64,000 bases of DNA, taken from contig CAYOVA010000005.1 of NCBI GenBank assembly GCA_964407325.1, forward strand, positions 2,996 to 66,995. The letters are read 5' to 3'. Under the pieces are notes generated by a model. The model saw only the letters and a program-made list of their open reading frames with translations, was not told the origin of the DNA and did not search any database. Source of the DNA: an uncultured Gammaproteobacteria bacterium. Lineage in GTDB: Bacteria > Patescibacteriota > Microgenomatia > UBA1406 > GWC2-37-13. Each line of letters opens with the position of its first letter. Position 1 is the first letter of the stretch. A program made the translations under genes and the position numbers. Shown piece by piece: positions 37,102 to 63,682 of this stretch.

Positions 37102-37129
37102 TGGCCGCCCCGAGCAATCGGGGCGGTCA
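37102..37129 (+). terminator. GC-rich hairpin downstream of the CaCA-like gene
   Basis: tggccgccccg-agcaat-cggggcggtca forms 11 bp with one G-T. It lies 42 nt after the stop and has no U-tract. Confidence 0.4.
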
Positions 37130-37194
37130 CAAACCAACATAAAGCACGTAAAAACCGTAATGGGATAGATTTATAGAAGAAATAACGAAGGTCT

Positions 37195-37686: not shown

Positions 37687-37807
37687 AGGAAGATCATTCT
37701 AGCAAAAGTAACTGGAGAATTACATGACAGAATTGTCAAAAAAATTGACAGTTTTCTCTATCATGAATGCAGAAATATCTCACGCAATTCGTACAGTCGA
37801 CAAGTCT

Positions 37808-43314: not shown

Positions 43315-43341
43315 TATCCTATAGTAATTAAGGGGCATTTG

Positions 43342-43350
43342 TGGTATAAT
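43342..43350 (+). promoter_or_regulatory. Extended -10 TGgTATAAT, 6 nt upstream of ATG 43357
   Basis: Sequence is ttTGgTATAATatacgtATG, with no SD. Confidence 0.45.
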
Positions 43351-43356
43351 ATACGT

Positions 43357-49300: not shown

Positions 49301-50578
49301 ACGGGCATCTTCGTACATTGAGAAGAGAACATTCTTCATAGCATAGATGCCGTCGCAGCAGTAGTCGCGGAAAATACGCAGTAGCCACCACGGGAAAAAC
49401 GTAACGGCCCACAACATAATAATAGTAATTACATATTCCGAGAACGTATCAACATAGCTACCAGAATTTACAGCTGAAAGAGTTCTGTCATTAATTTGCG
49501 CCGGACCGCCATAGAGAATATTCAAAGCAGTAGGATAGGTATACCCTATAAGCGGGTTATCGGTTGCATCAAAACGCTCTACCGGAATTACACGAGAGAA
49601 GTCGAAGGTAAAGGGAATACCTGCTTTCCAGATTTTCGAGAGAGCCCCAAGAAATAGTGCAAACAGAGGCCCGTACATAAGCCACTGGAAGAATACACCA
49701 ATCCAGATCCACCCAATGTTTCTAATAAATACAAATGGCATTAAGAGGGCGAGAAACGGAGCCACAAAAAGCAGAAACCACAAGAGAATCTTCCGCAAAA
49801 TTATCATCGTACCCATTATGTAATAGGTGATATTCGTAAGCTTGTAGAGGAACATTTTGGTATCAGCCGCTTCCTGTACGCGGATATTCAAGTCGCGGCA
49901 GCCAACAAAGTCAATGTAGTTGCGCTCGGTTGTTCCCAGGTTACCCAGACTGGTAAAGTAGATGGTAAATAAGTCTTTTCCTCCCATGTTATCAATAAAG
50001 AAGCGCATTAGAATCTCGGAGAGCTGGATTAGCAACATGACAATTGAAGCCGAAAGCGCAATATACAGCAGCATAATACCAAGCTTTATTACCGTGGGCC
50101 AGAGCTCAAGGTTTAAGTCAAAGTTGGTACGACGGCTCACGATAAAGCCCAATCCAAAAATAGCAGCTACGATAACTACAAAAAAGAACGCCACAGTGCT
50201 GGTGATGCCCCAGATTTCGCGAAGGACTGGGTGGTCGTCGATGGCGCGGCTGTTAATAGTCCAGTAAATAAACTGGCGGGCGCGGTCGTTTGCTTTTCCC
50301 TGCGCCGTTACTGCTGGATCTTCAATCCAGAAATGTCGGGTAGTGGGAAAGCGACTAAATTCTTGAAATGAGCGAGCACAGGGTTCACCCAGTTCCTGGT
50401 ACACCGGCATCATTTCGGTAGGGCAGCTCCGGGCTTCAGAAGTTCCGCAGGGAATAGGAGTAATTGCATTCCGGGTGATGTCAAAATACGTCATAGGCTC
50501 AATAGCATACGAAGAGACAGGCGCTATGTAGAGCACTACGACAAGGAGCGAGAGCAAAACTGCAATTTTTTTCAACAT
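46400..50578 (-). CDS. Giant polytopic membrane protein with internal ~75-aa repeats and acidic C-terminus (VirB6/TrbL-like topology?)
   Basis: Signal peptide MLKKIAVLLSLLVVVLYIAPVSSYA (start placed at ATG 50578). At least 7 TM helices in aa ~130-440. Then a Ser/Thr/Ala-rich region with 4 degenerate repeats (..I[ST].IAQ..N[ST]..ST.[KR]ILE.YS......M.E.V..LAKEL.[ML]S.[EQ]Q[IV]..T[IL]..). Then a Glu/Lys-rich tail. The VirB6/TrbL assignment rests on topology only. Confidence 0.7.
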   Translation of the reverse strand: MLKKIAVLLSLLVVVLYIAPVSSYAIEPMTYFDITRNAITPIPCGTSEARSCPTEMMPVYQELGEPCARSFQEFSRFPTTRHFWIEDPAVTAQGKANDRARQFIYWTINSRAIDDHPVLREIWGITSTVAFFFVVIVAAIFGLGFIVSRRTNFDLNLELWPTVIKLGIMLLYIALSASIVMLLIQLSEILMRFFIDNMGGKDLFTIYFTSLGNLGTTERNYIDFVGCRDLNIRVQEAADTKMFLYKLTNITYYIMGTMIILRKILLWFLLFVAPFLALLMPFVFIRNIGWIWIGVFFQWLMYGPLFALFLGALSKIWKAGIPFTFDFSRVIPVERFDATDNPLIGYTYPTALNILYGGPAQINDRTLSAVNSGSYVDTFSEYVITIIMLWAVTFFPWWLLRIFRDYCCDGIYAMKNVLFSMYEDARSSKGKKDGPAPKFDLKQVLRIPTRTDVNLENKAAMRIATTEKMKTMATHEISTALDMKASRLTDIAQMEMNQTRMSAVQKNFAMLANPAQATTGAERSQFMNLRTELFNRAIKQDSMARTLLSSTSASSYERNKIREELIKSINANVSTKSTATITAEQMNELARTMSSTMKSSVMNSAAAASSASQSAFGSASSSASATGSVSARTATATRSAAAIAAQLLTTDTITSVAQATNSTPATTRRILETYSQANTEALNKTIGNLTKELNMSSEQVRGTIEASTMYMSRNTNVTSLSQETISTIAQSMNTSVESTRKILEVYSRSTSAAMTETVQLLAKELALSTEQIQKTIETALSKAESNASSASTSSSTSGTQTRNGTVALNKEAISEIAKAVNSSAESTQKILEAYSKTNARSMNEAVRTLAKELNMSTQQVRNTLDATITQQASKTNKIMTSYMDKMLQSEKALAKIAEKSKLTQQQTKDILTAYTQNMNRPANQVVPSVSVTAKVTESQAKGALNTINTMFTTRNMILDFAEDNKIEVEKVQSAVAKTIGATGGNGETPDIGSPGGGPPLNPTKTAAELVEAGKGGTPGKEAAAGQYEGTGGGPAPAPTNEEQHLATELAERALKNKELSEQLGIESMNPQDKPAIVRHILRFINDNKEVTDAILKDVSEKEQVHTEEAAQVVQEQLNITAKPEENIEKIVAVPPSITLEEYEDLKEMWEHQYEEGEIPVQENIQTREEWVDQDIVTITNVMNKVLSPDEKIQQQGLDELGFIIPIFMINNLKGDQLITYLKAKLEAAKLVKKLLDREKFVQDKLDKRAQEEEFVDLKPEKKNEKLNQPMHMEFEEEKGPTTIEERAQIEVQAAPEVNKAYTEQSESSQASTPEDSDASSIRSNDYYSQSDDSSASSQGKEIPWDEEEKKEPELKEYGEEEPSREYGRDSEPKEYGSEEDVMKKLKEFDNEK

Positions 50579-50641
50579 ATGTTTTCCAATCCGGATATGT
50601 ATTACAATCATTATAGAGTAAATATTGAAAGTCCACAATAA

Positions 50642-51529
50642 ATGAAAAAAACCAAAACAGTATTTCTTTTTGCAGTAGGTGTTTTCTGCCTCTTTGCGGT
50701 TGGTGCTGTCTCGATTCTCCTGCTGTTAACACCGGATAAAAGAAAGATGGATTCTGCACAAGCACCTAGTCCAGTGCAAAGCATTACAAAACCTTCTCCA
50801 GATGCTGTAGGAAAAGCGGGTGAAGAAGTTCTTTATAGTGAAGACCTGGAATATGAGATGTCATTGTATCCTGCTTCAGAATCCGCATCTGTGAAGGCAG
50901 CTGTTACTAACAAGATGATACGAGATTCAGTACTATTGCAGGCAGCACGTGATGAAGGAGCAATAAGCCTGGATGAAAAAGTGTTTAATGCCCGCAATAA
51001 AAACTACCGTCTCCGATTACGACTTGTAGATTTGGCCAGGAAGAACTTGGAAGAGCGAATAGGGAAGATTAAAGGTACGGGTGTTGTTTTGTGGTATCAA
51101 AACGGAACTCCTGGAGAGGCTGGGTATGATCAAGGGCGGCAGTTAGCGCTGGATAAGATTACTACAGTTCAACGGCAGGTGCAATTAGGAAATATAAGTA
51201 TAGATGAGGCGATTCAGGAGATTGAGGATGATGATTCTCTTCTGTTAGTAGATACTTCATATAAAACCAATGCACGGCTTGATTTTAATGTACCGTTGAG
51301 CAGTCCCATAACTATAGACCCTGAGGTGGATACTACGATAAAAAAACTAAAAAAAGGGCAACTGAGCCAAGTGTTGGAAGGAAAAGATGTTGAACCAGGG
51401 ATTTTAACGGGCAAGCGTGAATCTTTTTTTGTATTTGCACAGGTTCAGGAAAAATCAGAAAGTGAATATGCCAGTTATGATGAATGGTACCAGTCAAAAC
51501 TAAAAAAATATGAAACAGCTTTGTATTAA
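50642..51529 (+). CDS. Membrane-anchored parvulin/PrsA-SurA-like protein (cassette 1, component A)
   Basis: N-terminal TM helix and a SurA_N-like helical segment (MIRDSVLLQAARDEG). A degenerate parvulin-like core (GTGVVLWYQNGTPG ... KLKKGQLSQVLEG ... FFVFAQV). Colinear with 54743..55690 and 58054..59031. Ends ..KKYETALY. Confidence 0.6.
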   Translation: MKKTKTVFLFAVGVFCLFAVGAVSILLLLTPDKRKMDSAQAPSPVQSITKPSPDAVGKAGEEVLYSEDLEYEMSLYPASESASVKAAVTNKMIRDSVLLQAARDEGAISLDEKVFNARNKNYRLRLRLVDLARKNLEERIGKIKGTGVVLWYQNGTPGEAGYDQGRQLALDKITTVQRQVQLGNISIDEAIQEIEDDDSLLLVDTSYKTNARLDFNVPLSSPITIDPEVDTTIKKLKKGQLSQVLEGKDVEPGILTGKRESFFVFAQVQEKSESEYASYDEWYQSKLKKYETALY

Positions 51530-53600
51530 AACTAGTGGCTTTGTGCTTCTGTTTGCAGGATTGTTTCTGTTTTCCGGGAGCGTCGTAGCTTTTGCGCCAG
51601 CGATTTACGGAACGGTGAAAATCAAAGGTTCCGGTGCTCCGGTTCCTGGAGTGTGGCTTGAGTGGAAATCATCGGAATTAGGTTGTTTTGAAGATGATTA
51701 CCCAGATGGTGAGCCAATGATGGGGAACTGCCGAGGTAATCATATAGGTGAGCATTACAGATTTGCTGGTACCGACAGCAACGGATCCTATCGATTTGAA
51801 CGATGGGATTGCTGTGGCGGCGATATTAACGAAGAAAACATCAACGACACCCGGTCAAACCGCGGTGTAACAGAGTATAACACCATGTTAAACCTGGATT
51901 ACAATCCCGCAACCGGAGCTGGAGGCAACGAGGCGCGCCAGGCATCAACTTCTCTTTTTGACCTTTTCAATTGCCATAATGAATACCAGACAGTACAGAT
52001 TCGCTTACCAGCGCAATACTCAAGTTATAAAGTAACAGGAAGATATCGAGATTCGGGCTCATCTAGCTGGACTACAACAAACAAAAACGAAATTATTATA
52101 GATGGACGAACCTTTTCTAACAATCATGATTATATTGCTGAATTTGAGTTAGAGCCGACGACCGAATGCCTTGGCATGAGTATAGAAAGACCGGTACTTA
52201 GCCCGGGACAAAATACCGCAGTAACAGTAACCTACCGTGCTGCAACTTCTAATGCTGGTAGCCTGATTCCCTTTAACTCCAGCAATGCTAATAGAGCTTT
52301 TTATTCTGAAGCAGATGTCAATGCGCCGGGATTAAGCCAAATGAATACTAACCACACAGATCAAGTAAGCGGATTTGCTACTTCCGGGATGGGTAATACA
52401 TTTGTTTGGCGAGTCAGTTACGAACAACTGCACCAAAGGGATAGGAACGCGGGAAACAGCTATCCTACCCAACTGTTTGTAAGACCTTATGCGGGAGGCA
52501 TATGGAATAATCCGCCGTTGGTGTGTTCAGGGACTATCACCCTTGTTACCCCTCCTTCACCGACACCTACTCCCACAAGGACTCCCACACCGACTCCGAC
52601 AAAAACTCCAACACCCACCCGGACACCCACTCCTACCCCTACACCAACTCCAACTCCCACGCCAACACCGACTCCTACGCCTACGCCAAAACCCATTACG
52701 GTAAACATTCTGAATAATACGCAACAATTACAGCAGCAGTTTGTTGCCAATTCATTACGTATAGGATGCCCTGCTTCCGATGTGTGCAGATCTGCCGTTT
52801 ACAAAGATGGTGTAAAGTGCACCACACAAGTCGCAAGCAATACAGGGAATCTCAATATACGACGCACCAGGATCAGAGATTTACGACTGTATTTTAACAA
52901 CCTAACGCGGGAAGACGAGAAAAAACTGTATATTGCAGAGTGCTTTTCCGGTGTCTTGCAAAGTGGTAAGTATGCCTGTACCACTGCAAATTCTCAAAAT
53001 GATCTGCTAATTTTTGGCGCAGACAATTTTTCTGCATTAAAAGCAAGAGGGTATAAGGCTGAATTGTTTGCAATCCATGATAGGGTAGCGCGTCCCTTCC
53101 CTGTTACTCGTCCCATTGTTCCAGCCGATACCGTGGATGAATTCGAATGGCAGTCGACAATGCCCTTTAATGCAACAAGTACCTTTATTGTTGCCTACCG
53201 AACAAACGGGTCTTTGCAAATACCTGCTACGGAGAATAGAACGCAAAAGATGGGTGCGCTTTCGTTTGGTGAAGTATGCCAAGCCGTTGTTGATCCCTAC
53301 GGCTATATTACCGATACAGCTACGGGTAAGCCGGTTGCGGGAGCTCAAGTAACCCTTCTGAAGAAAACAGCGGCGGGAACTTTTAAGCCGTTAACGAATG
53401 ATGAAGTCTCCGCCCTCCCAGGACATGTACTTATTGTGAATCCGCAGCAAACAGGCCAAGATGGTTACTATTCTTTCCATGTACCAGATGGAGAATATAA
53501 AGTTGTAGTAAAACACTCGAGTTACAAGGAGTTTATTTCAAAACCGCTCCTTCAAAAAGGGAAGCCGGTGCGCTTTGATATTACCTTAAAGAGTAAGTAG
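51510..53600 (+). CDS. Secreted Cys-rich surface protein with (TP)n linker and one CarboxypepD_reg-like domain (cassette 1, component B)
   Basis: Signal peptide MKQLCIKTSGFVLLFAGLFLFSGSVVAFA. The N-terminal domain is colinear with B2 (NLDY....G.EAR.A....FD.FNCHNE, NNHDY..EF.L). Conserved EC...Y.CTT.N and FEWQST blocks. C-terminal VVDPYGYITD..TGKPVAGAQVTLLKK...DGYYSFHVPDGEYKVVVK is a prealbumin/CarboxypepD_reg-like fold. No C-terminal TM anchor. Confidence 0.65.
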   Translation: MKQLCIKTSGFVLLFAGLFLFSGSVVAFAPAIYGTVKIKGSGAPVPGVWLEWKSSELGCFEDDYPDGEPMMGNCRGNHIGEHYRFAGTDSNGSYRFERWDCCGGDINEENINDTRSNRGVTEYNTMLNLDYNPATGAGGNEARQASTSLFDLFNCHNEYQTVQIRLPAQYSSYKVTGRYRDSGSSSWTTTNKNEIIIDGRTFSNNHDYIAEFELEPTTECLGMSIERPVLSPGQNTAVTVTYRAATSNAGSLIPFNSSNANRAFYSEADVNAPGLSQMNTNHTDQVSGFATSGMGNTFVWRVSYEQLHQRDRNAGNSYPTQLFVRPYAGGIWNNPPLVCSGTITLVTPPSPTPTPTRTPTPTPTKTPTPTRTPTPTPTPTPTPTPTPTPTPTPKPITVNILNNTQQLQQQFVANSLRIGCPASDVCRSAVYKDGVKCTTQVASNTGNLNIRRTRIRDLRLYFNNLTREDEKKLYIAECFSGVLQSGKYACTTANSQNDLLIFGADNFSALKARGYKAELFAIHDRVARPFPVTRPIVPADTVDEFEWQSTMPFNATSTFIVAYRTNGSLQIPATENRTQKMGALSFGEVCQAVVDPYGYITDTATGKPVAGAQVTLLKKTAAGTFKPLTNDEVSALPGHVLIVNPQQTGQDGYYSFHVPDGEYKVVVKHSSYKEFISKPLLQKGKPVRFDITLKSK
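52549..52695. repeat. Low-complexity (ACN-CCN)n tract encoding a ~48-aa Thr-Pro linker
   Basis: Encodes PPSPTPTPTRTPTPTPTKTPTPTRTPTPTPTPTPTPTPTPTPTPTPKP within 51510..53600. Confidence 0.9.
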
Positions 53601-53605
53601 TAGGT

Positions 53606-53628
53606 GGAAGGGGCAGGATGCCCCTTCC
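53606..53628. terminator. Perfect 9-bp GC-rich hairpin between convergent genes
   Basis: GGAAGGGGC-aggat-GCCCCTTCC starts 6 nt after the stop of 51510..53600 and lies ~50 nt beyond the stop of 53679..54626 (-). No U-tract on either side. Confidence 0.5.
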
Positions 53629-53678
53629 AATGCGAACTTGCCTGTGTTCAGAGCCCGGATTGCTGGTGCTCCTTCCCC

Positions 53679-54626
53679 TCAACGATGAATCCGGGGTATG
53701 TAGACCTTGAGTTCACCTGTTGCTACCACCCAGCGAAGCCTCTGGTAGCCATTGAACCAGAGAAACTGGCCGCTCACGTCGGTAGTCCTCAGGTGAGCTA
53801 CCACCTCGGCATCCTTGCTTAAGTCCAGGGGGACTGTAAGCACGGTGGTACCGGAGATAAGGCCGTTTACCGGCAACACCTTGCTCTGGTATCCGCCGCC
53901 ATCCTCGTACACGGTCATCCGAAGCGTGCCGCTCAGTGGCTCCGTGCCGGTATCCAGCGTAAAGGAGACCTGTGCCTTGTCGGGCTGCAGCTCAACATCG
54001 AGCTCCACCGCTGTAGTGCAGGGCACATGCAGATGGTACTTCTCCGGGAAGGTGTACGCCCCCACGGTCTGGAGCTGCGCCTCGGCGATGAAGCCGCACG
54101 GCAGCCAGAAGTCGGGATTGTACTCCTTTACCTGCGTCCTGTTGTAGGTCGTTACCTGGCGCCATGGCTGGTCTACCTGCCAGAAGATGTAGTACGGAAT
54201 CCACAGCGAGTGCTGCAACTTCAGCACCCCATTCTCGTACACCAGCTTCGGCAGCGGGAGGGGCACCTCAGGCGCCTGCACCACAAAACTCAGCCACTCG
54301 CTTACCCATCTGTCAGTCACGACCCGCACCGTCGTCTCGCCGCTAAACTGCGGCTTCCACTGGAAGCTGGTGCGCATGTCATCGAGCTGGAAGTAGTACC
54401 AGTGGTGAGGCCCGTTTGTGACACGGACCTCAAGATACATCTTCCCCTCGGGCGTGGGCGGCGCAGGCTGGTTGAGGGTTAGCGTATGCATCACCCCAAC
54501 TTGCGCCGCCTCGCTCGTCGAAAGCGTTACTACCTCGGCTGCGCTGGTAGGGGGTGAAACAATTCCCACCATTACCAACAGAGCAACCATCGCCATCATC
54601 CACCTTAGAGTCCGAAGCGTTCTCAT
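53679..54626 (-). CDS. Secreted hypothetical protein encoded in a GC-rich segment
   Basis: Signal peptide MRTLRTLRWMMAMVALLVMVGIVSPPTSAAE. G/C-ending codons. AGGAGA SD (reverse complement of 54633..54638) 6 nt before the ATG. Trp/Tyr-rich beta-type sequence with no family recognised. Confidence 0.65.
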   Translation of the reverse strand: MRTLRTLRWMMAMVALLVMVGIVSPPTSAAEVVTLSTSEAAQVGVMHTLTLNQPAPPTPEGKMYLEVRVTNGPHHWYYFQLDDMRTSFQWKPQFSGETTVRVVTDRWVSEWLSFVVQAPEVPLPLPKLVYENGVLKLQHSLWIPYYIFWQVDQPWRQVTTYNRTQVKEYNPDFWLPCGFIAEAQLQTVGAYTFPEKYHLHVPCTTAVELDVELQPDKAQVSFTLDTGTEPLSGTLRMTVYEDGGGYQSKVLPVNGLISGTTVLTVPLDLSKDAEVVAHLRTTDVSGQFLWFNGYQRLRWVVATGELKVYIPRIHR

Positions 54627-54706
54627 CTGAGTTCTCCTGTATCAGGATTTAGTCGCTGCAAGTATTATAGGATAAAATTTGTCAAAAATCCATCTTCTTC
54701 CTCGAT

Positions 54707-54736
54707 TTGACAAGCAGGCCACCTGTTCTTTACTAT
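54707..54736 (+). promoter_or_regulatory. Sigma70-type promoter: TTGACA, 18-nt spacer, TACTAT, then 6 nt to ATG 54743
   Basis: -35 TTGACA at 54707..54712; -10 TACTAT at 54731..54736; ATG at 54743. No SD, so the geometry is leaderless. Confidence 0.5.
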
Positions 54737-54742
54737 TGATCT

Positions 54743-55690
54743 ATGGATAATCTTCCTATGCGTAATCCGAAGATGTATATTTTTGTTGGTGCTGGAATTC
54801 TTATTCTTGTTGTTGTAATAATCTCCTTGCTTACTATAACCCGTGACCAGGAAAGGCGCTCAGCTTCCACTACCCCAATAACCGGAGAACAATATCCAGA
54901 AGACACCAACCCTACGCCGGGGCAAGCAAATGTGAATCTTAGAACCAGTTCTCCTCCATCTAAAGGCGTTATTGCAAAAGTAGGTGAAGAGCTGATATAT
55001 GAGTCTGACTTAAACTATGAGCTTTCCTTTTATCCGGCTTCAAACGATGGTGAACCTGAAACCATTTTGTTTAAAAAACTGATTGAAGATTCTGTTCTTC
55101 TTCAAGCGGCGCAGGATGAAGGGTATACCACCCTCGATTCTTCCATCTTTAACTCTCCAACCAAAGATTATGCGAAACGAATTGAGACTGTTATGCGGTT
55201 AAAAGATGAAATCGAGCAAAAAACCTCAACATTCGAAGGGTCAGTAATTGCCATCTGGTTTCATAACCAAACACCTGGGTCGGTAGGCTATGAACGAGGG
55301 AAGCAAATTGCCCAGCAGGAAATGAACACATTGCTCACCGAGCTCTCGGCAAATAGAATTACCATGCAACAAGCTGGGGAAAGAATACGAGCCAACCAGA
55401 ATTTGGCTCAAGTTGATTCATCGTGGAAAGCAAATGCGTTTTTTGATTTTGCGGTACCGTTTGGCGGAAAAATTACGTACAGTAAGGAAATAGACAGAAG
55501 AATTTTTAACGTAGATGAAGGTCAGTTATCCGGAATTATTACCGGAAAAGACCTCGATCCCCAAACAGGCAAACAAATTGATGCGGTTTACATGATTGCA
55601 GAAGTTACAAAACAAGGCGACCGGGCAGCGGTAAGTTACGATAAATGGTTTACTGCCAAACTCAAAGAATATGAAGTCACTCGTTATTAA
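54743..55690 (+). CDS. Membrane-anchored parvulin/PrsA-SurA-like protein (cassette 2, component A)
   Basis: TM helix IFVGAGILILVVVIISLL. LIEDSVLLQAAQDEG. Parvulin-like GSVIAIWFHNQTPGSVGYERGKQIA ... VDEGQLSGIITG ... AVYMIAEV. Ends ..KEYEVTRY. Confidence 0.6.
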   Translation: MDNLPMRNPKMYIFVGAGILILVVVIISLLTITRDQERRSASTTPITGEQYPEDTNPTPGQANVNLRTSSPPSKGVIAKVGEELIYESDLNYELSFYPASNDGEPETILFKKLIEDSVLLQAAQDEGYTTLDSSIFNSPTKDYAKRIETVMRLKDEIEQKTSTFEGSVIAIWFHNQTPGSVGYERGKQIAQQEMNTLLTELSANRITMQQAGERIRANQNLAQVDSSWKANAFFDFAVPFGGKITYSKEIDRRIFNVDEGQLSGIITGKDLDPQTGKQIDAVYMIAEVTKQGDRAAVSYDKWFTAKLKEYEVTRY

Positions 55691-58052
55691 ACTATTATCG
55701 GTTTTTCTTTTTGCGGGAGCATTTGCACTCCTTGCTTCCCCTGTGTCTGCGTATGCTCCAAACGTAAAAGGGAAAATATATCAAAATACCGGAGCTCCTC
55801 TTCCGGGAATCTGGATTGAATGGACATCGCAAGAATCAGGTGATGACGGCAATCAGGAAAATAGAGGAACCAGTTACCGGTACGCGGGTACTAACGAAAA
55901 TGGAGATTTCCTGTTTAAGGGATGGGATCTTGAGGGGACAGTTGACGAGAATGGTGTGATGTATTCGAATCTGGGTAAGCGCGAGTACGAGGAAAAGATT
56001 AATCTTGATTACGATGATGCCAATGGAAAAGAAGCACGGAGAGCCACAAACAACAAGTTTGATATATTTAACTGCCACAACGAAACTAACAGCTTTAGTT
56101 TACGTCTTCCGGAATCGTTGAAGAGTATGAAAGTCGAAGCCAGGTGGAGACGGGAAAGCGATAACACCTCCTGGAGTGCGTGGACAGCAGACAAAGTTTC
56201 ATTGCAGGAGGATATTTTTAACAACAGTCATGATTACGAGATAGAGTTCAAGCTGACATTACCTAAACAAGCCTCCATCCGCGACATTGATAATGATATC
56301 GATCCTCCGTCAATTTCAAACCTAAGCACGCAAATTAATAAAGTTCCTGCGTGTGTACAAGCAAGTTTGTGTACCGGGAAAGAAGGAGAATGTTCCCGCG
56401 ACTACAAACCGGCTCCTGGGAAACACAGGGTGTCGCTTTCAGCTATTGGGGATACAGGAATTGGTGATGCCAGAAGAAAGCTGACTAACAATGCAAGCCC
56501 CATTTGGCTGGTGGAGTGTATTCAAGAGGGCGCGGTAGATTCACCAACATACACCTGTACTACCGGAAATGCGAAACTTGACGAGAAAATATTCGGACCG
56601 GGAAACGACAACGCGAATAAACTGGCGCAAAAGTACGGATATTCGGCAAAGATTTTCTACACAGACGGCACGCCAACCATCGCTGAAATTACCGACGAAA
56701 ACAAACAGGATGTGTACGAGTGGGAGACCACTGTTCGTCCCGATGCCGGTCGAAGAATCTCTAGCGTGTACCTGGCATTGTATGAAGATGATAATTCTGG
56801 CGTACCACTTGCAGGAAACAGAAAAACGCAAAAACTGGCAAAGCTCGGATTCGGGGAAGGGTGTCGGCTGGTAGTTGACCCCTATGGAAAGGTGTTTGAT
56901 AGCGTATCACTGGAACCGCTTGCTGGAGTAGCTCTTACTTTGCTAAAACAGCGTGAAGGCGATCAATTTACACCGGTACAACCGAATGAAGTAGTGGGTT
57001 CTCTGCATAATCCTCAGCGTACCAGTGGAAATGGAAGCTATAGCTTTGTGGTCCCTCAGGGTAACTATAAGCTTCAGGTATCCCGCTCGGGATACGAGTT
57101 CCCCCCCAAAGAAATAAATCCGAATGTAGGGCAGTTTTTCTCAAATTTATATATGGGAGACACCATAACGGTAGTAGATGATCCAATATATACCGATGTG
57201 CCGATGTCTCCCCTTGATAAAAAACAATCGAATACCTACGCAAAATCAAATCCAATAGTTGTCGAAAGTTACTTTATCACCACCGATCACGAAAACATGA
57301 TTCAGCGGATTGAAGGGGTAGTAAGCCATCCACGGGCGATCGTTGAGGTATATGGACAAACACCTAATCATAATAATCCTGGTGAAATGATGCGAACACG
57401 CATGCTGGGAAGTGATGAAGCTGATACTTCAGGACGTTTTGAAATAACTGTTGGGTTAGATACTTTACGGGCAGGAGAAGTAGTCGGCGAACTGGAAGCA
57501 AGGAAAAAATCGATTCCTGGACAAAGTAAGTCACAAGCTGCAATCGTGAAAATGCAACCGGTTCTGGCAACGCTTGATGGGTATGCAACGTCAAACACTG
57601 GAGCGGTACTACCCAATGCCAAGGTGGAAGTACGGTTATTGACTACAAACATACCGGTTGTATCGATAACTGCAGATGAAACAGGTCGATTTATAGTTCC
57701 TGTAGATCAAATGCCAGAAGTTCCCTACACACTTGCCTTTACTGATGGAGATACGGTAAGTACGGTTACTACATCGACATACATTACCAATAACGCAAAA
57801 CTTTCCGGAAGCCATAACTACTACGCTTCAGCTGGGTCTAGTGTTTTGGGTGATTTTGACAGATCTACTGTAGAAAATCCAACGGAATCTATGGATGCTC
57901 AAGATCAACCTGTGGAAATCCGAAGCACTGATTCTCAAGTACCCTCAGGATTTATTCTGGTTGGTATTATTCTAATGATCTTCATAATTGCAGTAACAGC
58001 CTTATTGAGCGTTTATATCACTCACGAATCAAAAACAAAAAGGAGACGGTAA
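55671..58052 (+). CDS. Large Cys-rich surface protein with three CarboxypepD_reg/Ig-like domains and C-terminal TM anchor (cassette 2, component B)
   Basis: Signal peptide MKSLVIKLLSVFLFAGAFALLASPVSAYA. The N-terminal domain is colinear with B1. VVDPYGKVFDSVSLEPLAGVALTLLKQ...NGSYSFVVPQGNYKLQVSRSGYEF. Two further beta-sandwich-like modules (..SGRFEITV.., ..ADETGRFIVPV..). C-terminal GFILVGIILMIFIIAVTALLSVYITHESKTKRRR. Confidence 0.65.
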   Translation: MKSLVIKLLSVFLFAGAFALLASPVSAYAPNVKGKIYQNTGAPLPGIWIEWTSQESGDDGNQENRGTSYRYAGTNENGDFLFKGWDLEGTVDENGVMYSNLGKREYEEKINLDYDDANGKEARRATNNKFDIFNCHNETNSFSLRLPESLKSMKVEARWRRESDNTSWSAWTADKVSLQEDIFNNSHDYEIEFKLTLPKQASIRDIDNDIDPPSISNLSTQINKVPACVQASLCTGKEGECSRDYKPAPGKHRVSLSAIGDTGIGDARRKLTNNASPIWLVECIQEGAVDSPTYTCTTGNAKLDEKIFGPGNDNANKLAQKYGYSAKIFYTDGTPTIAEITDENKQDVYEWETTVRPDAGRRISSVYLALYEDDNSGVPLAGNRKTQKLAKLGFGEGCRLVVDPYGKVFDSVSLEPLAGVALTLLKQREGDQFTPVQPNEVVGSLHNPQRTSGNGSYSFVVPQGNYKLQVSRSGYEFPPKEINPNVGQFFSNLYMGDTITVVDDPIYTDVPMSPLDKKQSNTYAKSNPIVVESYFITTDHENMIQRIEGVVSHPRAIVEVYGQTPNHNNPGEMMRTRMLGSDEADTSGRFEITVGLDTLRAGEVVGELEARKKSIPGQSKSQAAIVKMQPVLATLDGYATSNTGAVLPNAKVEVRLLTTNIPVVSITADETGRFIVPVDQMPEVPYTLAFTDGDTVSTVTTSTYITNNAKLSGSHNYYASAGSSVLGDFDRSTVENPTESMDAQDQPVEIRSTDSQVPSGFILVGIILMIFIIAVTALLSVYITHESKTKRRR

Positions 58053-58053
58053 T

Positions 58054-59031
58054 ATGGATTATCCTGAAGCAGGAGAAAGTAATGAAATTGCAAATGACAA
58101 ACAAAAGATACTGATATTTGCCGGGATCGGCATCTTTTTTTTTGTACTCATACTTTTTGCAATCGTTTCTCAGTTTGCCTCCAACAGAGGGCAGCAAACT
58201 GCACAAAATAGCAGCCCAACTCCACCAATACAAACCTCAGGCAATAAACCTCTCTTTAATGACCCCACCGAGGGGCCGGTAAAAAAAGCAACTCCTCCGG
58301 TTGCCGGTGCCGCAGCAAAAATTGGAGCAGAGATTATCTATAACGTAGATGTAACTCGTGAAACCTCTGCGCTTCCCAATTCCGATGATTCATCGGTGAT
58401 TGAACAGGTGTTTAATAAAATGGTAAATGATTCTGTGACGCTGCAGCAGGCTGCAAAAGAAGGGTACATCAAATTAGATACTACCGTTTTTAATTCCCGG
58501 ACTAAAGACTACACCAAGCGCATAGAGTTGATTGAAGAGGCTAAGCGCTCTGTGGAGATGAATGCTGATGGATACAGTGGCAGTTTTGTGGCGATCTGGT
58601 TTCATAATCAGAAACCTGGGAGGGTAGGATACGCTCAAGGAAAACAACTCGCCTACAATAAAATAAAACCACTCTACGACCAGGTAAAAGCCGGGCAGAT
58701 GACAATGCTTGAAGCATCTGATGCTATTATTGCAGATGCAAGCCTGGAAGATGTTGATGAAGCGTTTCGGGTAAACTCGTATGGGGATTTTAAAGTTACC
58801 GCTGAAACGCAAGCGACGTTTGATCCTGCTTTTAATGCCAAACTTGCCAAGTTACGACCTGGCCAAATTACCGATCTACATCTTGCAAAAGATAAAGATG
58901 AACGTGGTAATATGATTGATGCCGTCTACATGTTTGGAAAAGTTGATTCGGTAACAGCCAACAAAGGCTATACCAATTATGAAGAATGGCTGGATTTGCA
59001 CAGGTCAAAATATGAAATTATTCAGTATTAA
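58054..59031 (+). CDS. Membrane-anchored parvulin/PrsA-SurA-like protein (cassette 3, component A)
   Basis: TM helix ILIFAGIGIFFFVLILFAIV. MVNDSVTLQQAAKEG. GSFVAIWFHNQKPGRVGYAQGKQLA ... LRPGQITDLHL ... AVYMFGKV. An AAGGAGA SD lies inside the last codons of the upstream gene. Ends ..SKYEIIQY. Confidence 0.6.
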   Translation: MDYPEAGESNEIANDKQKILIFAGIGIFFFVLILFAIVSQFASNRGQQTAQNSSPTPPIQTSGNKPLFNDPTEGPVKKATPPVAGAAAKIGAEIIYNVDVTRETSALPNSDDSSVIEQVFNKMVNDSVTLQQAAKEGYIKLDTTVFNSRTKDYTKRIELIEEAKRSVEMNADGYSGSFVAIWFHNQKPGRVGYAQGKQLAYNKIKPLYDQVKAGQMTMLEASDAIIADASLEDVDEAFRVNSYGDFKVTAETQATFDPAFNAKLAKLRPGQITDLHLAKDKDERGNMIDAVYMFGKVDSVTANKGYTNYEEWLDLHRSKYEIIQY

Positions 59032-61474
59032 ACTTCTTATTCTTGCTTTTGCAGCAGGCTTCTTTGCCTTAACTTCCTCACCTGTGGATGCGGCAATTCC
59101 GGTTAAGCGTGTATGTGTGGTAAACCAAAATAACCAGCCGCTCTTATACGAAGATGGACAGGGCTTGTGGATCGGTCACAATAACAGTGAAGGGTCAGTT
59201 TATTCCCGACGTGCTGGTGCCGATGGTTGTACTGACTTCCCAGATCAGGATGCTGCCTGGAGTACAACAAGGCAAATTGACACCAATATGGATGGTACCA
59301 ACGACACAGTTGAAAAAAAGGTGCTGAATGGGAACGACGACCTTGGTTGTGTATCGGCACCGCAGGGGATGAAAGTTACCCTTCCGGCTTCCTGGGCAGA
59401 TGAATGGGAGTGTCAGAGTGTAGGGAGTCCCGATGGTCCTTTCCCGTGTTGCAGGAGTGGCACCAGCCGTGAGTATTATTCGTGTAACGATTGTAAAGTC
59501 CATGGGCGGTGGACCGGGTCGGAGTATGTAGGAACCTATCCGGATGAAATTGCCGGCGATCAGCGCCAGTGCTTTTGCAGCAGAAATACCAGCGGGACAG
59601 ATGACACGCCGGAATCGCAAGCCCAGGATCAATCGTGTCCGCTATGTTTCCACAACAGTGGCCAGCTTCTTAAAATAAAACTCCAGTGCCGTAAAAAAGC
59701 CGAGCAAAAAACAGCAAGTTCGGTTACACTCCAAAATCCCAAACCGGAGCAGTTCGGAACTCCTGCCAACTATATGGTAGATTGTCTTGGCAGCAGGCTC
59801 TGTTCGTATGAGGGTACCCCTCTGGAAGATGAGGATGGGGAAGACAATTTGGATGCAGTAATTTGTTCAGAGCAAAACGAACAGGGTTCAGACACACGCC
59901 GTTTTCTTTTGGAAGATTATCGTGATGCTGCGTTAAAATACTCTAAAACTGCAGAAGACGGGGAAACTCTCAAATCACCGGTATTTATAACCGAGTGTAT
60001 TATGGAAGGCACCAATGAAGATGACGCTCGCTATGTGTGTACAACGGGGAATGCCGCCAAAGATGCGGAAATTGGTTTAAAAGCAGCAGGGAGCAATACA
60101 CCCAGTGCTACTTATCTGGCAAGCACCTACGGTTATAAGGGCGGTTTGCAAGATGAAGAAGGCCAGCCGGTAACTCAGCCAATTCTCGAAATTGCAAATC
60201 TTGCCAGCATTTACGAATGGGTGACTGAAACAACCGAACCGGTGCGAAGTGTTCATGCACTGTTTTATGATGCTCAATATGCAGTTGCAATGAGGGCGGG
60301 AAACAATCCAACGCAAATTCAAAGAACGCTCAGCACCACCGGTGCTTGTAATCTCCATATTGATCCGGTAGGACGGGTGTTTGACAACCACACATTGGAA
60401 CCGATTCCTGGTGTAAACATGACATTGGAACGAAAAGGGGAATCCCAACCTGTGGCTAAGAGCACGACATTGGCAGATGGTCAATTTTCCTTCTACGTAA
60501 GTCCGGGAACCTACAAGCTTCTTGCGCAGGTACGGGATTATGTTTTCCCACTGGTAGGTTCAGTGAACCAAAAAGCTTCCAGCATCTACAAAAACTTCTA
60601 CAAAGGGGGAGATATTATTGTAGATCGACAGATTGTGTACACCGATATTCCAATGCAGCCACAAAACAAGGAAGCGGCGGAGTTTTTTGCGAAGCAAACA
60701 AAGCCTGAAGTAATGGACTATTTCCAGTCTCTCAATAAAGAAAAGGGAGAATACATAATTCAAGGAAGTGTTTCCCATCCGCTTTCCCGAGTATCAGTAA
60801 CCTCAGAGGTCGCCAGCCGTCTTGAACGAGGCACCATAAATCAGGGACGAGTCTTAGCCAGTACAACAGCAGATAAATACGGGCGGTTCAAAGTATCTTT
60901 CCCGCTTACCAAGTTAAATCAGAATGAAACGATTGGTTCATTAGAAGTAATTAAACCGAAGGATGTCTATAAATTTGGAGGTGGTAATAAAGCTTCCGTT
61001 GTGCTTGCACCTATTATGAACGGCATAAAAGGCTTTGCATTTGACAGCAGCGGAAATGTGCTTCCCGGTGCTACCGTGGCCGTTAAATTGCCGGTTTTTT
61101 CCCAACCGGTATACCAAACGAAGGCTGATGAAAAAGGGTATTTTGAGATTGATCCAGAACTGCTTCCTCCCATGCCCTACAAACTTACCTTTACTTCTTT
61201 GGGAAATAAAGAAGAAATTGTTGACACCCGTTCCTTTATTGCTCAAAATGCCCGGATGAATACTAATTTATCCCGTTATTATGCTGCTCGTCCCGATAAT
61301 GTAATGCAATACGTTCTGGGTGAATCAACAGAATATACCAGCTTAAACGCAACGAACGATTTCTTTACCCAAAATCGTCCCGCTGTTTTGGGAGGATTGT
61401 TCCTTTTTATGCTTGTGAGCGCTATTCCTTTTTACAATCTTTACACTCACCATGAACCCCGGCGTCGAAAGTAA
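59012..61474 (+). CDS. Large Cys-rich surface protein with CarboxypepD_reg/Ig-like domains and C-terminal TM anchor (cassette 3, component B)
   Basis: Start moved to ATG 59012 (MKLFSIKLLILAFAAGFFALTSSPVDA) by analogy with the two other junctions. Conserved TECIMEG...RYVCTTGN, IYEWVTET, HIDPVGRVFDNHTLEPIPGVNMTLERK, ADKYGRFKVSF and ADEKGYFEI. C-terminal VLGGLFLFMLVSAIPFYNLYTHHEPRRRK. Confidence 0.65.
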   Translation: MKLFSIKLLILAFAAGFFALTSSPVDAAIPVKRVCVVNQNNQPLLYEDGQGLWIGHNNSEGSVYSRRAGADGCTDFPDQDAAWSTTRQIDTNMDGTNDTVEKKVLNGNDDLGCVSAPQGMKVTLPASWADEWECQSVGSPDGPFPCCRSGTSREYYSCNDCKVHGRWTGSEYVGTYPDEIAGDQRQCFCSRNTSGTDDTPESQAQDQSCPLCFHNSGQLLKIKLQCRKKAEQKTASSVTLQNPKPEQFGTPANYMVDCLGSRLCSYEGTPLEDEDGEDNLDAVICSEQNEQGSDTRRFLLEDYRDAALKYSKTAEDGETLKSPVFITECIMEGTNEDDARYVCTTGNAAKDAEIGLKAAGSNTPSATYLASTYGYKGGLQDEEGQPVTQPILEIANLASIYEWVTETTEPVRSVHALFYDAQYAVAMRAGNNPTQIQRTLSTTGACNLHIDPVGRVFDNHTLEPIPGVNMTLERKGESQPVAKSTTLADGQFSFYVSPGTYKLLAQVRDYVFPLVGSVNQKASSIYKNFYKGGDIIVDRQIVYTDIPMQPQNKEAAEFFAKQTKPEVMDYFQSLNKEKGEYIIQGSVSHPLSRVSVTSEVASRLERGTINQGRVLASTTADKYGRFKVSFPLTKLNQNETIGSLEVIKPKDVYKFGGGNKASVVLAPIMNGIKGFAFDSSGNVLPGATVAVKLPVFSQPVYQTKADEKGYFEIDPELLPPMPYKLTFTSLGNKEEIVDTRSFIAQNARMNTNLSRYYAARPDNVMQYVLGESTEYTSLNATNDFFTQNRPAVLGGLFLFMLVSAIPFYNLYTHHEPRRRK

Positions 61475-61592: not shown

Positions 61593-63110
61593 ATGTTATC
61601 CAAGATTTACTCCAGTACTCTTATTGGCATTCAGGGAACTATAGTTGAAGTGGAAGTGGATGTTTCCGAAAGGGGTTTTCCTTCAATTTCCATTGTTGGG
61701 TTGCCTCATAAATCTATAGAAGAAGCAAAAGAACGAATGAGAGCTGCTATTGTAAGCTCGGGTTTCAAAATGCCAGAGTGCCGGATTACAGTAAACCTGG
61801 CTCCGGCTGACATTCCCAAATCGGGTTCGGGATTTGATTTGCCGATGGCCTTAGGTGTCTTAGCAGGAACAGGAGTTGTTTCGATGGATGGCTGCAAAGA
61901 TATTCTGGTTGTAGGTGAACTAGCGTTGAATGGCTCAGTAAAACCAGTGCGAGGGATATTGGCAACTATACAATCTGCTGTAAACAAAGGCATCTCTCAA
62001 GTGGTTGTTCCGGTGGAAAATGCAGAAGAAGCCAGTCTTATTGCTGATGTTAAGATTATTCCTGTTGCCACCCTGCAAGAGTTAATTGATTTCTGCAACG
62101 GAAAAAGAAAAAGCTTCTCTGTTGCTAAAAAAGCAAGACCAGGAACGATCAACCATAAAGATGACTTTTCTTTTATTAAGGGACAAACGCAAGCAAAAAG
62201 GGCACTGGAAATTGCAGCTGCCGGATTACACAACATTCACATGAAAGGCCCTCCTGGGAGCGGAAAAACGGCATTATCGCGAGCGTTCTCATCGATTCTT
62301 CCACCGTTAACCCGAGACGAATTGATCGAAGTATGTACGATCTATTCCGCTTCAGGGTTATCGTTTCAGGAATTTTTATACGGAACCAAACCATTCCGCG
62401 CTCCTCATCACACGATTACAAGGAATGGCTTAATTGGTGGCGGAAATCCACCTCGAGCTGGAGAAATTACGCTGTCACATAGAGGCGTTCTTTTTCTTGA
62501 CGAACTTCCTGAATTTCCCCGTTCGGTTATTGAATCGCTACGCCAGCCCCTGGAAGATGCTACAGTATCGATTTCACGATCGGGAAGCTCATTTCAATTT
62601 CCTAGTAGAGTACAGTTAATTACCGCCTCGAACCCCTGTCCCTGCGGTTATCTGGGGCATCCGGAAAAAACCTGTGAATGTACCGTACCAGCAATAACCT
62701 CATATCAATCACGGTTAAGTGGACCGTTTCTGGATCGCATTGATATACACATAGATATTCCTCCCGTTACAATTGATACATTACTTACAGACAAGCAAGC
62801 AGAATCAAGTAGCACTATTCGTGATAGAGTGATGCAAGCGAAGGAAAGACAATCATTCCGGTATAGGAATCAACGATATTCGGTAAACGGTGATATTCCA
62901 TCCCATGATATAAAAAAATACATTTCGCTCCAGTCCGAAGACGAAAAGTTTCTTATTTCTGCGATAGAAAAGCTCCACCTTTCTGCACGGGCATATTTTA
63001 AGCTGTTAAGGGTATGCAGGACGATATCAGACTTAGATTGTTCTGACAACGTAAAAAATATACATATCGCTGAAGCTTTGCACTATTGCAAAAGATCGCT
63101 TGACAAATAA
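61593..63110 (+). CDS. comM: YifB/ComM family Mg-chelatase-like AAA+ ATPase
   Basis: The N-terminal Lon-protease-like S5 domain has IVGLPHKSIEEAKERMRAAI and NLAPADIPKSGSGFDLPMALGVL. Walker A is MKGPPGSGKTAL. GVLFLDELPEF (Walker B). A C-terminal Mg_chelatase_C-like region. 505 aa is the typical length. Confidence 0.85.
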   Translation: MLSKIYSSTLIGIQGTIVEVEVDVSERGFPSISIVGLPHKSIEEAKERMRAAIVSSGFKMPECRITVNLAPADIPKSGSGFDLPMALGVLAGTGVVSMDGCKDILVVGELALNGSVKPVRGILATIQSAVNKGISQVVVPVENAEEASLIADVKIIPVATLQELIDFCNGKRKSFSVAKKARPGTINHKDDFSFIKGQTQAKRALEIAAAGLHNIHMKGPPGSGKTALSRAFSSILPPLTRDELIEVCTIYSASGLSFQEFLYGTKPFRAPHHTITRNGLIGGGNPPRAGEITLSHRGVLFLDELPEFPRSVIESLRQPLEDATVSISRSGSSFQFPSRVQLITASNPCPCGYLGHPEKTCECTVPAITSYQSRLSGPFLDRIDIHIDIPPVTIDTLLTDKQAESSSTIRDRVMQAKERQSFRYRNQRYSVNGDIPSHDIKKYISLQSEDEKFLISAIEKLHLSARAYFKLLRVCRTISDLDCSDNVKNIHIAEALHYCKRSLDK

Positions 63111-63113
63111 ATT

Positions 63114-63623
63114 ATGGCTTTCTATGATAAGCATATGCTCAAAAATAAACTATTCGCTTACCTTGCATCAATAGTTGCCGTACTCGCACTCTTCTTTGTT
63201 TTTGTCCCGGACGCCTCAGCTGCCACTTTGACTTTGACCATCAAAGTAAATCAACAGGCACTTGGTTTTGCCATTCCGAATCTTGCTGAAATCCTTACTT
63301 TTATTATTCGTGCGTTCTTTGTAATTGCAGGCTTAATTGCTCTGTTTTACCTGCTTATTGGTGCACTTGAATGGGTTTCATCAGGTGGAGATGAAGAAAA
63401 GGTTGAAGCTTCTCGTAAAAAGATCACCGCTGCTATTATCGGTGTCATTTTGATTGTTGTCGTACTTGCCGTTATCGTTACTCTTGAGCAGATTGTATTC
63501 CGGGGCAAAATCTGTGTCGGAATCTCATGCGCAGCTACCATTCCAAATCTTGTTACACCATGTTGCGACTCAACCGTAACATCGCCTCCCGACGATGGAT
63601 CATGCGCAATCTGCACTCCATAA
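63114..63623 (+). CDS. VirB2/TrbC-like mini-pilin (CPR-type 'pilin') with Cys-rich C-terminal tail
   Basis: Signal peptide ...FVFVPDASAA. TM1 is FFVIAGLIALFYLLIGALEWVSSGGDEEKVEASRKKITAAIIGVILIVVVLAVIV, which fits the TM-[x]SGG[DN]..K...A+..I..AIIG-TM motif of VirB2/TrbC-like pilins. The last ~40 aa contain 7 Cys. The 3-nt gap after comM suggests coupling. Confidence 0.55.
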   Translation: MAFYDKHMLKNKLFAYLASIVAVLALFFVFVPDASAATLTLTIKVNQQALGFAIPNLAEILTFIIRAFFVIAGLIALFYLLIGALEWVSSGGDEEKVEASRKKITAAIIGVILIVVVLAVIVTLEQIVFRGKICVGISCAATIPNLVTPCCDSTVTSPPDDGSCAICTP

Positions 63624-63682
63624 GAGCGCAGACTAACCTAACCTCTGTTGACAACGTATTCCAGTCCCGATACTATTAATCT

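Follow-up and report, generated by a model that had tools for sequence, protein, structure and literature searches.

Patescibacteria account for much of bacterial diversity, and attachment to other cells is common among them; to our knowledge, little has been established about how their surface is built. In Pseudomonas and Burkholderia, the foldase Lif (LipB) is anchored in the membrane by its N-terminus, acts outside the cytoplasm and is encoded in an operon with its single client, a lipase. In Lactococcus lactis, PrtM is a PrsA-family chaperone that is specific for PrtP and encoded together with it (PMC3307742). The reference list of the same paper carries a title on PmpA, a PrsA-like protein of L. 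lactis without a peptidyl-prolyl isomerase (PPIase) motif, which offers a plausible precedent for a PrsA-like protein lacking that motif. Here we describe three tandem gene pairs, or cassettes, in a 64,000-nucleotide stretch of contig CAYOVA010000005.1 (assembly GCA_964407325.1), assigned by GTDB to the Microgenomatia within Patescibacteriota and hereafter called the window; the source labels of homologues likewise point to a Patescibacteria genome of Microgenomatia type. In each pair a gene A, for a membrane-tethered protein of PrsA/SurA-like architecture, precedes a gene B, for a large exported beta-sandwich protein. The partner that has been conserved next to A in other genomes is the N-terminal head of B, not B as a whole, and A is probably a client-specific PrsA/SurA-class chaperone or binding partner that engages this head and aids folding or retention of the ectodomain.

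A sequence-only reading of the window had proposed the three pairs, and the listing of open reading frames (ORFs) contains all six genes where that reading had placed them, on the forward strand. A1 (50642..51529, 295 amino acids, aa) is followed by B1 (51510..53600, 696 aa), A2 (54743..55690, 315 aa) by B2 (55671..58052, 793 aa) and A3 (58054..59031, 325 aa) by B3 (59012..61474, 820 aa), with a spacing of 1 nucleotide (nt) between B2 and A3. In every pair the end of A and the start of B overlap by 20 nt, at 51510..51529 on the forward strand for A1/B1 (TATGAAACAGCTTTGTATTAA), at 55671-55690 for A2/B2 and at 59012-59031 for A3/B3. The first ATG of the B3 ORF lies at 58979 and would yield 831 aa; the ATG at 59012, which fits the 820 aa proposed earlier, is the more likely start because it gives the same 20-nt overlap as the other two pairs. 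The length of the overlap follows from the conserved C-terminus of A, Y-E-x-x-x-Y-stop, whose codons hold the partner's ATG (T-ATG-A) in the +1 frame. In a scan for promoters and terminators, signals did not exceed shuffled expectation.

The three A proteins are 34-35% identical to one another and share the motifs DSV.LQ.A..EG, WFHNQ.PG and AVYM. Each begins with one hydrophobic helix of ~25-30 residues (~aa 5-29 in A1, ~aa 17-41 in A3), and the proteins contain 1, 0 and 0 cysteines, respectively. A1-A3 lack a lipobox and hence the lipoprotein anchor of PrsA type; the transmembrane helix is a functional equivalent of lipid anchoring, achieved by other means. Modelled by AlphaFold2 with 21 homologues (predicted local distance difference test, pLDDT, 82), A2 is predicted to consist of the transmembrane helix (nt 54767-54859), a disordered linker, a helical domain (nt 54968-55228), a domain of parvulin topology (nt 55229-55615) and a C-terminal tail (nt 55616-55687) with a helix and a strand. 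In this model the helices at aa 87-162 and the C-terminal helix and strand at aa 299-314 together make up a SurA_N-like domain, completed by the C-terminal segment, and the parvulin-like domain at aa 163-291 is predicted with pLDDT >90 to have the topology beta-alpha3-beta-alpha-beta2.

Comparison of the A2 model with the PDB by Foldseek returned SurA/PrsA-type chaperones for all of the top nine matches (E 3.5e-5 to 0.1), namely LIC12922, BAM-bound SurA, PrsA of Lactococcus, Streptococcus and Bacillus, PEB4/Cj1289 and the PPIase domain of BB0108. The full-length alignments to PrsA and SurA have E-values of 3.5e-5 to 3.7e-4 and, at the level of the domain, the parvulin-like part aligns with the BB0108 PPIase domain with a template modelling score (TM-score) of 0.50. 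A profile of 51 A sequences reaches SurA at E 6e-4, with the N-domain and P2 segments collinear and the SurA motif D.iiLQ in common. Among these 51 members, Pfam Rotamase matches 10 (best E 2e-4), SurA_N another 10/51 and SurA_N_3 9/51 (best E 9e-6), in all cases under the curated cut-offs. Scanned singly with hidden Markov models (HMMs), the check that had been proposed for A, A1-A3 gave nothing significant against Pfam and NCBIfam and only weak hints of SurA_N and SurA, which in A3 take the form of weak matches to SurA_N, SurA_N_2 and the SurA equivalog. A comparison of the A profile with E. coli Par10 by hhalign was uninformative. On its predicted structure and these profile matches, A is best described as a protein of PrsA/SurA-like architecture with a pseudo-parvulin domain, and the fold, the profile and the family-wide Pfam matches support the earlier description of A as PrsA/SurA-like, tethered to the membrane and degenerate in its parvulin core.

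The domain is called a pseudo-parvulin for its residues. Apart from a single position in a helix (45% His), no column of the parvulin-like domain holds histidine in more than 15% of the 175 family sequences compared, and A1 lacks histidine altogether; the invariant residues of the domain are N, A, D, N and F. The catalytic histidine pair of active parvulins was not found in the A family. With no conserved histidine in this domain, canonical prolyl isomerase chemistry is unlikely and A is, judging by its residues, probably not an active prolyl isomerase. Membership of the PrsA/SurA class therefore holds at the level of architecture and does not extend to the catalytic residues or the lipoprotein anchor.

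The A family is large. A profile search of 1.84 billion representative proteins recovered 554 clusters (50% identity) at E<=1e-3, of which 373 are also reached at E<=1e-30, and ~170 A sequences group into 57 clusters at ~38% identity; a word-indexed homologue search had given just 19 A and 11 B relatives, a sensitivity artefact. No Pfam or NCBIfam model reaches the family at its curated cut-off and no description of it was found in the searchable literature, nor any relevant paper on PrsA- or parvulin-like proteins in Patescibacteria, also known as the candidate phyla radiation (CPR).

The B proteins are more divergent than the A proteins, with pairwise identities of 23-37%, and all three carry EC...Y.CTT.N and [YF]EW, as quoted in the sequence-only reading. 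PF13620 (CarboxypepD_reg) matches B1, B2 and B3 at 47, 52.8 and 62.2 bits (E 3e-12, 5e-14 and 6e-17) against a cut-off of 32.3, over one, three and two stretches, in agreement with the one to three modules proposed. Each protein has a signal-peptide-like N-terminus, and the cysteine counts are 14, 7 and 19. B2 and B3 are type I surface proteins with a C-terminal transmembrane helix and a basic tail. In B2 the signal peptide (nt 55671-55751) is followed by the head (nt 55752-55940), the remainder of an N-terminal module (nt 55941-56501) and a B core with the three CarboxypepD_reg-like stretches (nt 56502-58049), the transmembrane helix lying at nt 57948-58022 in front of the tail KTKRRR. B3 consists likewise of signal peptide, head, the N-terminal module with its 19 cysteines, and B core (nt 59981-61471), with the transmembrane helix at nt 61379-61444 and the tail RRRK. 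By the HMM ranges, B1 has its head at nt 51594-51809, a Cys-rich region, a (TP)n linker of 48 aa (aa 348-395, nt 52551-52694) and, of the B core, no more than the initial ~230 positions; as had been noted earlier and as the topology check agrees, it has no C-terminal anchor. The domain matches and predicted topology support the view of B as a family of Sec-exported beta-sandwich (CarboxypepD_reg) surface proteins.

A B profile searched against PDB sequences matches generic transthyretin-like, NOMO and carboxypeptidase D chains, as well as one chain labelled just 'conserved membrane protein' (8qox, E 0.0014). Scans of B1-B3 with Pfam and NCBIfam detected no peptidase domain and, together with the PDB-sequence profile, no binding domain of known specificity; an identity as S-layer proteins or peptidases was rejected on the Pfam scans and a motif check. 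Anchoring by sortase was likewise rejected, since the last 80 residues of B1-B3 hold no LPXTG-like motif before the transmembrane helix; the sole loose match to the pattern, IAVTA in B2, falls within that helix.

The head, 60-120 aa long, stands at the N-terminus behind the signal peptide and has the motif AP.V.G.V..G.P..G.WV.W...RY..T..G.Y.F..W. It resembles the first half of a CarboxypepD_reg sandwich, matching positions 2-44 of PF13620 at E 3e-7 to 0.19, under threshold.

The arrangement of A and B recurs in at least 15 other contigs, and its stop/start overlap is strongly kept, so that the adjacency predicted from the window is indeed conserved in relatives. Of the earlier proposal that each A is coupled to a giant Ig-like protein, the pairing with a surface protein stands, and the coupled unit is instead the head. 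For all 24 non-redundant A genes with a separate downstream gene, the next gene is co-directional and its product bears the head, whatever the remainder of that product; the 25th A gene (locus L101) is fused in frame to its partner. The partners range from proteins of 187-224 aa (loci L091, L094, L096 and L099) through one of 511 aa with part of the B core (L100) and one of 596 aa (L098) to 978 aa with VWA and SdrD_B domains (L095) and 1416 aa with Laminin_G_3 and CARDB (L090). An HMM of the head only matches the N-terminus of 21/21 B ORFs of A-containing loci (E<=1e-27) and none of ~60 B-core proteins that have no neighbouring A. The co-occurrence of A and head is strict, and the pairing is widespread in Patescibacteria of this type.

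The junction itself is nearly as constant. Among the 25 non-redundant A genes, the overlap with the partner is 20 nt in 20, 17 nt in two and 29 nt in one, a gap of 1 nt separates the genes in one, and the last is the fusion at L101. There (positions 1-1866), A runs in frame into its partner, the old signal peptide becoming an internal hydrophobic segment ahead of a Cys-rich protein rich in TP linkers; either the two genes are truly fused here or the contig contains a frameshift error. In L004 (15159-16325, the same as L010 1992-3158), a 388-aa ORF joins the N-terminal transmembrane helix and SurA_N-like part of A to the C-terminal sandwich and transmembrane anchor of B, and appears to be a decayed third cassette that collapsed through deletion. 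The fusion and this A::B remnant also tie the A and B genes together.

These observations bear on an alternative in which A is a general housekeeping PrsA and its place beside B an accident of operon structure. Foldases of this kind are common in monoderm bacteria, and A carries no other annotation; yet three copies stand at one locus, A and head co-occur strictly, and a head-bearing partner or a fusion was seen for each A examined, across widely differing genomic contexts, with an overlap near-invariant at 20 nt. We regard a housekeeping role as very improbable. A and head are also found together in settings unrelated to that of the window, for example in L095 adjoining ClpB and NusA/IF-2.

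The mechanism we favour would run as follows. A would sit on the outer face of the cytoplasmic membrane through its uncleaved N-terminal helix and, with a pseudo-parvulin domain devoid of the catalytic histidines, would bind or hold its client instead of isomerising prolines. B would be exported via Sec, the head being the first part to emerge after the signal peptide. A may then recognise the head at the Sec exit and help the Cys-rich beta-sandwich ectodomain to fold, or may remain bound to it. Translational coupling of the two genes would result from the 20-nt stop/start overlap, with A and B made together and in fixed proportion. In this lineage, the module of A and head has become joined to the B core, an anchored beta-sandwich protein.

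Several points weigh against this reading. Physical contact between A and the head is something we infer. The TM-scores of the whole A model in Foldseek are low (0.22-0.27), which the transmembrane helix, the disordered linker and a flexible orientation of the domains may explain. A profile of the parvulin-like domain alone has no significant match to solved parvulins (best SurA P2, E 0.58), so that the assignment of a parvulin fold depends on the predicted structure and the sub-threshold Pfam matches. The co-occurrence counts cover A-containing loci and A-less B-core proteins. B homologues that have no A apparently manage alone, which argues that A is not needed for the B core; this absence of A beside the B core holds for ~10 kb around the neighbouring gene M, described below. 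Finally, stoichiometric coupling is unusual for a catalytic chaperone, and a stable complex fits equally well.

A stable complex is the essence of an alternative in which A is a permanent membrane dock and the head a portable docking domain that tethers diverse cargo, the whole being a two-partner system of surface display. The fixed overlap, suggestive of 1:1 production, the loss of the catalytic residues from the parvulin domain and the head as the sole element common to otherwise unrelated cargo would all suit a dock, as would the natural A::partner fusions and the existence of partners without an anchor of their own, among them B1 and the proteins of 187-224 aa. B2 and B3, on the other hand, possess C-terminal transmembrane anchors that make a dock unnecessary for retention, and proteins of PrsA/SurA type are known as chaperones and not as anchors. 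We therefore hold the dock to be a possible but unlikely account, and retain the client-specific chaperone or binding partner as the preferred one.

The history of the three cassettes speaks to the proposal, made in the sequence-only reading, that the B proteins, each served by a foldase of its own, are adhesins for host attachment and diversify as cassettes duplicate. In L001, L004, L005 and L009, one-to-one orthologues of A2/B2 and A3/B3 stand in unchanged order, with identities of 49-55% for A2, 47-51% for B2, 39-52% for A3 and 38-55% for B3, and cassettes 2 and 3 are thus old paralogues and not the product of recent diversification. L092 also has two cassettes in the same arrangement, the orthology comparison covering the four genomes named. 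A1/B1 has no orthologue in these four, the highest identity there being 35%; the closest relative, P0171, is encoded together with an M-like gene on a contig of 3 kb, and A1 itself matches the A-family HMM. Among the genomes compared, the third copy alone varies: the window has A1/B1, L001 a different cassette (Ac/Bc) in a downstream position and L004 the decayed copy, so that copy number is 2-3. The identity matrices of A and B agree closely (Mantel r 0.88, p 1e-4), indicating that the pairs were co-inherited without shuffling. Synonymous sites between the cassettes are saturated, at 23-37% protein identity.

Within B2 the parts differ in conservation. Compared with the orthologue P0021 the head is 97% and the N-terminal module 89% identical, and compared with the others 55-73%, this being the best-conserved part of the protein; the membrane-proximal sandwiches are the least conserved, mostly at 28-46%. 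Between paralogous cassettes, it is the head that is most divergent (20-22%). A head that is conserved among orthologues and divergent among paralogues fits pair-specific recognition, and a conserved N-terminus in orthologues runs opposite to the pattern expected of a rapidly diversifying adhesin tip.

The adhesin proposal retains some appeal in the variable copy number, in the third copy that differs in place and sequence, in the high divergence of the paralogues and in a beta-sandwich architecture which, like the VWA, SdrD_B and Laminin_G domains of other partners, is typical of adhesins. The age and one-to-one orthology of cassettes 2 and 3, the distribution of conservation along B and the lack in B1-B3 of a binding domain of known specificity oppose it. 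Diversification by duplication is not supported for the two old cassettes, and we consider the adhesin reading doubtful.

Between cassettes 1 and 2, on the reverse strand at 53679..54626, lies an ORF of 315 aa with a signal peptide, a GC content of 0.59 and a GC content at third codon positions (GC3) of 0.76, the genes around it having a GC3 of 0.32-0.41. Pfam and NCBIfam gave no match for this ORF, and in relatives no gene separates the cassettes; it has the look of foreign DNA recently inserted or of a chimera made in assembly, and is probably not part of the system.

The sequence-only reading overlooked the conserved neighbourhood of the cassettes, made up of a membrane protein that may be VirB6-like, of ComM and of VirB2-like pilins. 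The membrane protein, here called M, is polytopic and encoded divergently from cassette 1 on the reverse strand (46400..50638; ORF of 1412 aa, likely start at the ATG at 50578). It consists of a conserved helical membrane domain of ~450 aa and a long repeat-containing extension. At least 184 homologues of the membrane domain occur in Roizman-, Gottesman- and Shapirobacteria, all of them devoid of any Pfam domain, and M itself gave no match in Pfam, NCBIfam or PDB sequences; the name 'oligosaccharide repeat unit polymerase', attached to one homologue in one source, was reproduced by no model and was discarded. In the extension, ~aa 640-950 (window 46400-48600, reverse strand) hold at least three degenerate repeats of ~70 aa with the pattern ..[KR].IL..Y[ST]...LAKEL..S..Q...T.., which account for spurious weak matches to helix-turn-helix, Sigma70_r3 and IF2_N models. 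The length of the extension varies widely, the homologues having 700-2233 aa in total. Modelled by AlphaFold2 with 112 sequences (pLDDT 82, predicted TM-score 0.78), the membrane domain has as its top Foldseek match TrwI/VirB6 of the R388 type IV secretion system (T4SS) stalk (7o3v_G; E 0.095, prob 0.94, TM-score 0.26/0.41); four further VirB6 chains rank among the best 17 and DotA follows as number 22, none reaching E 1e-3. A VirB6-like fold is suggested by this model and is not established.

Directly 3' of cassette 3, on the forward strand at 61593..63110, is a gene for an AAA+ protein of ComM/YifB type, similar to Mg-chelatase (Mg_chelatase E 2e-84, with ChlI and Mg_chelatase_C), whose position next to the cassettes is kept in relatives. 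Genes for VirB2-like T4SS pilins (PF18895, T4SS_pilin) follow on the same strand at 63114-63623 (E 9e-8; 32.5 bits against a cut-off of 26.6) and from 63683, the latter recognised by a pilin HMM and cut at the window end (64000). In most of the Roizmanbacteria-type genomes examined (window 61593-64000; L005, L007, L009-L088), ComM is likewise followed by 1-4 tandem VirB2-like pilin genes. ComM is a natural-transformation helicase and ComB serves as a comparison for DNA uptake; by analogy, the linkage of ComM and pilins suggests a ComB-like role in DNA uptake. On the far side of M, a protein with Peptidase_C39_2 and TPR domains and two unannotated exported proteins are encoded (43339-44550, forward; 44565-46378, reverse); L005 has matching genes at these positions, with a single ORF of 414 aa where the window has two (390 and 214 aa).

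To place the cassettes in this context we compiled 80 loci anchored on M from the genomes of GTDB species; in 67 of them the DNA upstream was long enough for scoring, A being scored within ~10 kb of M. A divergent adjacent B core is present in 46 of the 67, ComM in 35, pilins in 41 and A in only 2; of the 46 loci with a B core beside M, 28 have ComM, and 26 of these 28 have pilins too. In most Roizmanbacteria-type genomes the B core, in genes of 600-720 aa that have neither head nor A, diverges from M and lies upstream of ComM and the pilins. This synteny marks the B core as an old companion of M, ComM and the pilins, and A with the head as a later addition in one small clade; given the setting of the B core, the cassettes most likely supply surface components of that envelope apparatus. 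Many of the GTDB species metagenome-assembled genomes with a Roizmanbacteria-type locus (L009, L012-L014, L016 and others) are titled 'uncultured Gammaproteobacteria bacterium' (third party annotation, TPA), and others Weeksellaceae or Limisphaerales; these titles look wrong, or the bins contaminated.

In a stronger form, the cassettes would be structural or adhesive parts of a T4SS-like or DNA-uptake apparatus made of M, the pilins and ComM, with B as its surface-contact element, a part not found so far in T4SSs of Patescibacteria; this idea overlaps both the chaperone and the dock readings. In addition to the synteny of B core and M, the significant PF18895 match and the best fold match of M point that way. 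A survey of Patescibacteria T4SSs reports that VirB6 is scarce in Microgenomatia by HMM searches, which its authors attribute to divergence, that no PrgB-like adhesins were found, that VirB2 pilin arrays are abundant in Microgenomatia and that competence genes are close to the T4SS in class ABY1 (PMC12102498). Against such an apparatus, the VirB6 match of M is not significant, no large ORF of the window matches VirB4, CagE or AAA_10, and neither VirB3/PrgI nor a coupling protein was found in the window; in the relative L008, VirB4 is encoded close to dnaA, at ~10 kb from M. Synteny, even where conserved, is no proof of a shared machine, and the presence of A and head in unrelated neighbourhoods means that their pairing is not specific to a T4SS. 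Membership of the locus in a T4SS is not established, and as an explanation of the cassettes as a whole we rate it improbable.

Returning to A as a client-specific helper of the head, one may go further and picture A and head as an unrecognised modular two-partner system of display or maturation in Microgenomatia-type Patescibacteria, with the head as a portable address that assigns any cargo to its own membrane-tethered pseudo-parvulin, recruited in this clade as the missing part through which a divergent T4SS-like or competence apparatus would make contact with host cells; we offer this as speculation that is more likely wrong than right. The pairing of A and head itself amounts to a testable rule for the maturation or display of large surface proteins in Patescibacteria, and the locus provides two candidate parts of the T4SS-like neighbourhood of Microgenomatia, namely M, with VirB6 as its best fold match, and a conserved beta-sandwich surface protein. 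If A and head do interact, surface proteomes might be predicted from metagenomes by way of the head, which could also serve to express intractable CPR surface proteins together with their cognate helper.

Other features of the window touch none of these genes. At the Rfam gathering threshold, the whole window contains only a transfer-messenger RNA (tmRNA, 7811-8207, 78.6 bits) and one tRNA (28039-28106). GC-rich islands at 34001-38000 (0.54-0.59) and 10001-12000 (0.51), compared with ~0.43-0.45 elsewhere, carry genes for TerC, a Na/Ca exchanger and a transporter of the major facilitator superfamily, and may represent horizontally acquired transporter genes in a low-GC genome. On the reverse strand, an ORF of 804 aa (28121-30535) has G6PD_N and G6PD_C domains as well as the NAD-binding and C-terminal domains of 6-phosphogluconate dehydrogenase, and apparently unites two enzymes of the oxidative pentose-phosphate pathway in one protein. 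Two further apparent fusions on this strand combine E1_dh with Transketolase_C (24461-27280, 939 aa) and a partial thymidylate synthase domain with PterinBD-DUF4346 (484-2157, 557 aa).

When the locus is set beside described systems, the chaperone-usher logic invoked in the sequence-only reading can be dismissed, as A is helical and parvulin-like and not PapD-like, and no usher is present among the window ORFs scanned. With the MPF-FATA-like T4SS of Patescibacteria, as described in PMC12102498, the neighbourhood has in common its tandem PF18895 pilins, a polytopic membrane protein with VirB6 as best fold match, a chromosomal location and a Microgenomatia-type genome, and it differs in that the window has no VirB4, VirB3/PrgI or coupling protein; the searched portion of that text contains no mention of CarboxypepD-type domains or of PrsA-like foldases.

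Lif and its lipase are a functional analogue, in that a membrane-anchored, client-specific helper is encoded in an operon with its client. The fold of Lif is all-helical and unrelated to that of A, the system belongs to the periplasm of diderms and the client is an enzyme. PrsA of Bacillus, Listeria and Streptococcus, SurA, PEB4 and LIC12922 share with A the predicted architecture, the D.iiLQ motif and an extracytoplasmic site of action, and are its best structural matches. A differs from them in having no conserved catalytic histidine and no Rotamase or SurA_N match over the curated cut-off, and in being held by a transmembrane helix, whereas PrsA is anchored by lipid and SurA is soluble in the periplasm. 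As general chaperones, moreover, they act on many clients and are not known to be coupled in translation to any single one.

Whereas the sequence-only reading could match the gene pair to no named system, PrtM/PrtP is, by analogy, the closest named precedent. In both cases a membrane-tethered extracytoplasmic protein of PrsA type is encoded beside one large envelope protein, an adjacency that holds here for 24/24 separate pairs, the 25th being fused. PrtM is a lipoprotein, whereas A has an uncleaved transmembrane helix and no lipobox, and PrtP is a subtilisin-like proteinase, whereas the client here is a beta-sandwich protein. The genes described here are, unlike prtM and prtP, co-directional with a fixed 20-nt overlap and multiplied in tandem, and the element recognised is apparently a portable N-terminal head common to unrelated cargo. 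What appears to be new in this locus, by comparison with these systems, is a portable head on unrelated cargo, an overlap fixed at 20 nt over a diverse family, and the tandem multiplication of the pair close to a T4SS-like neighbourhood.

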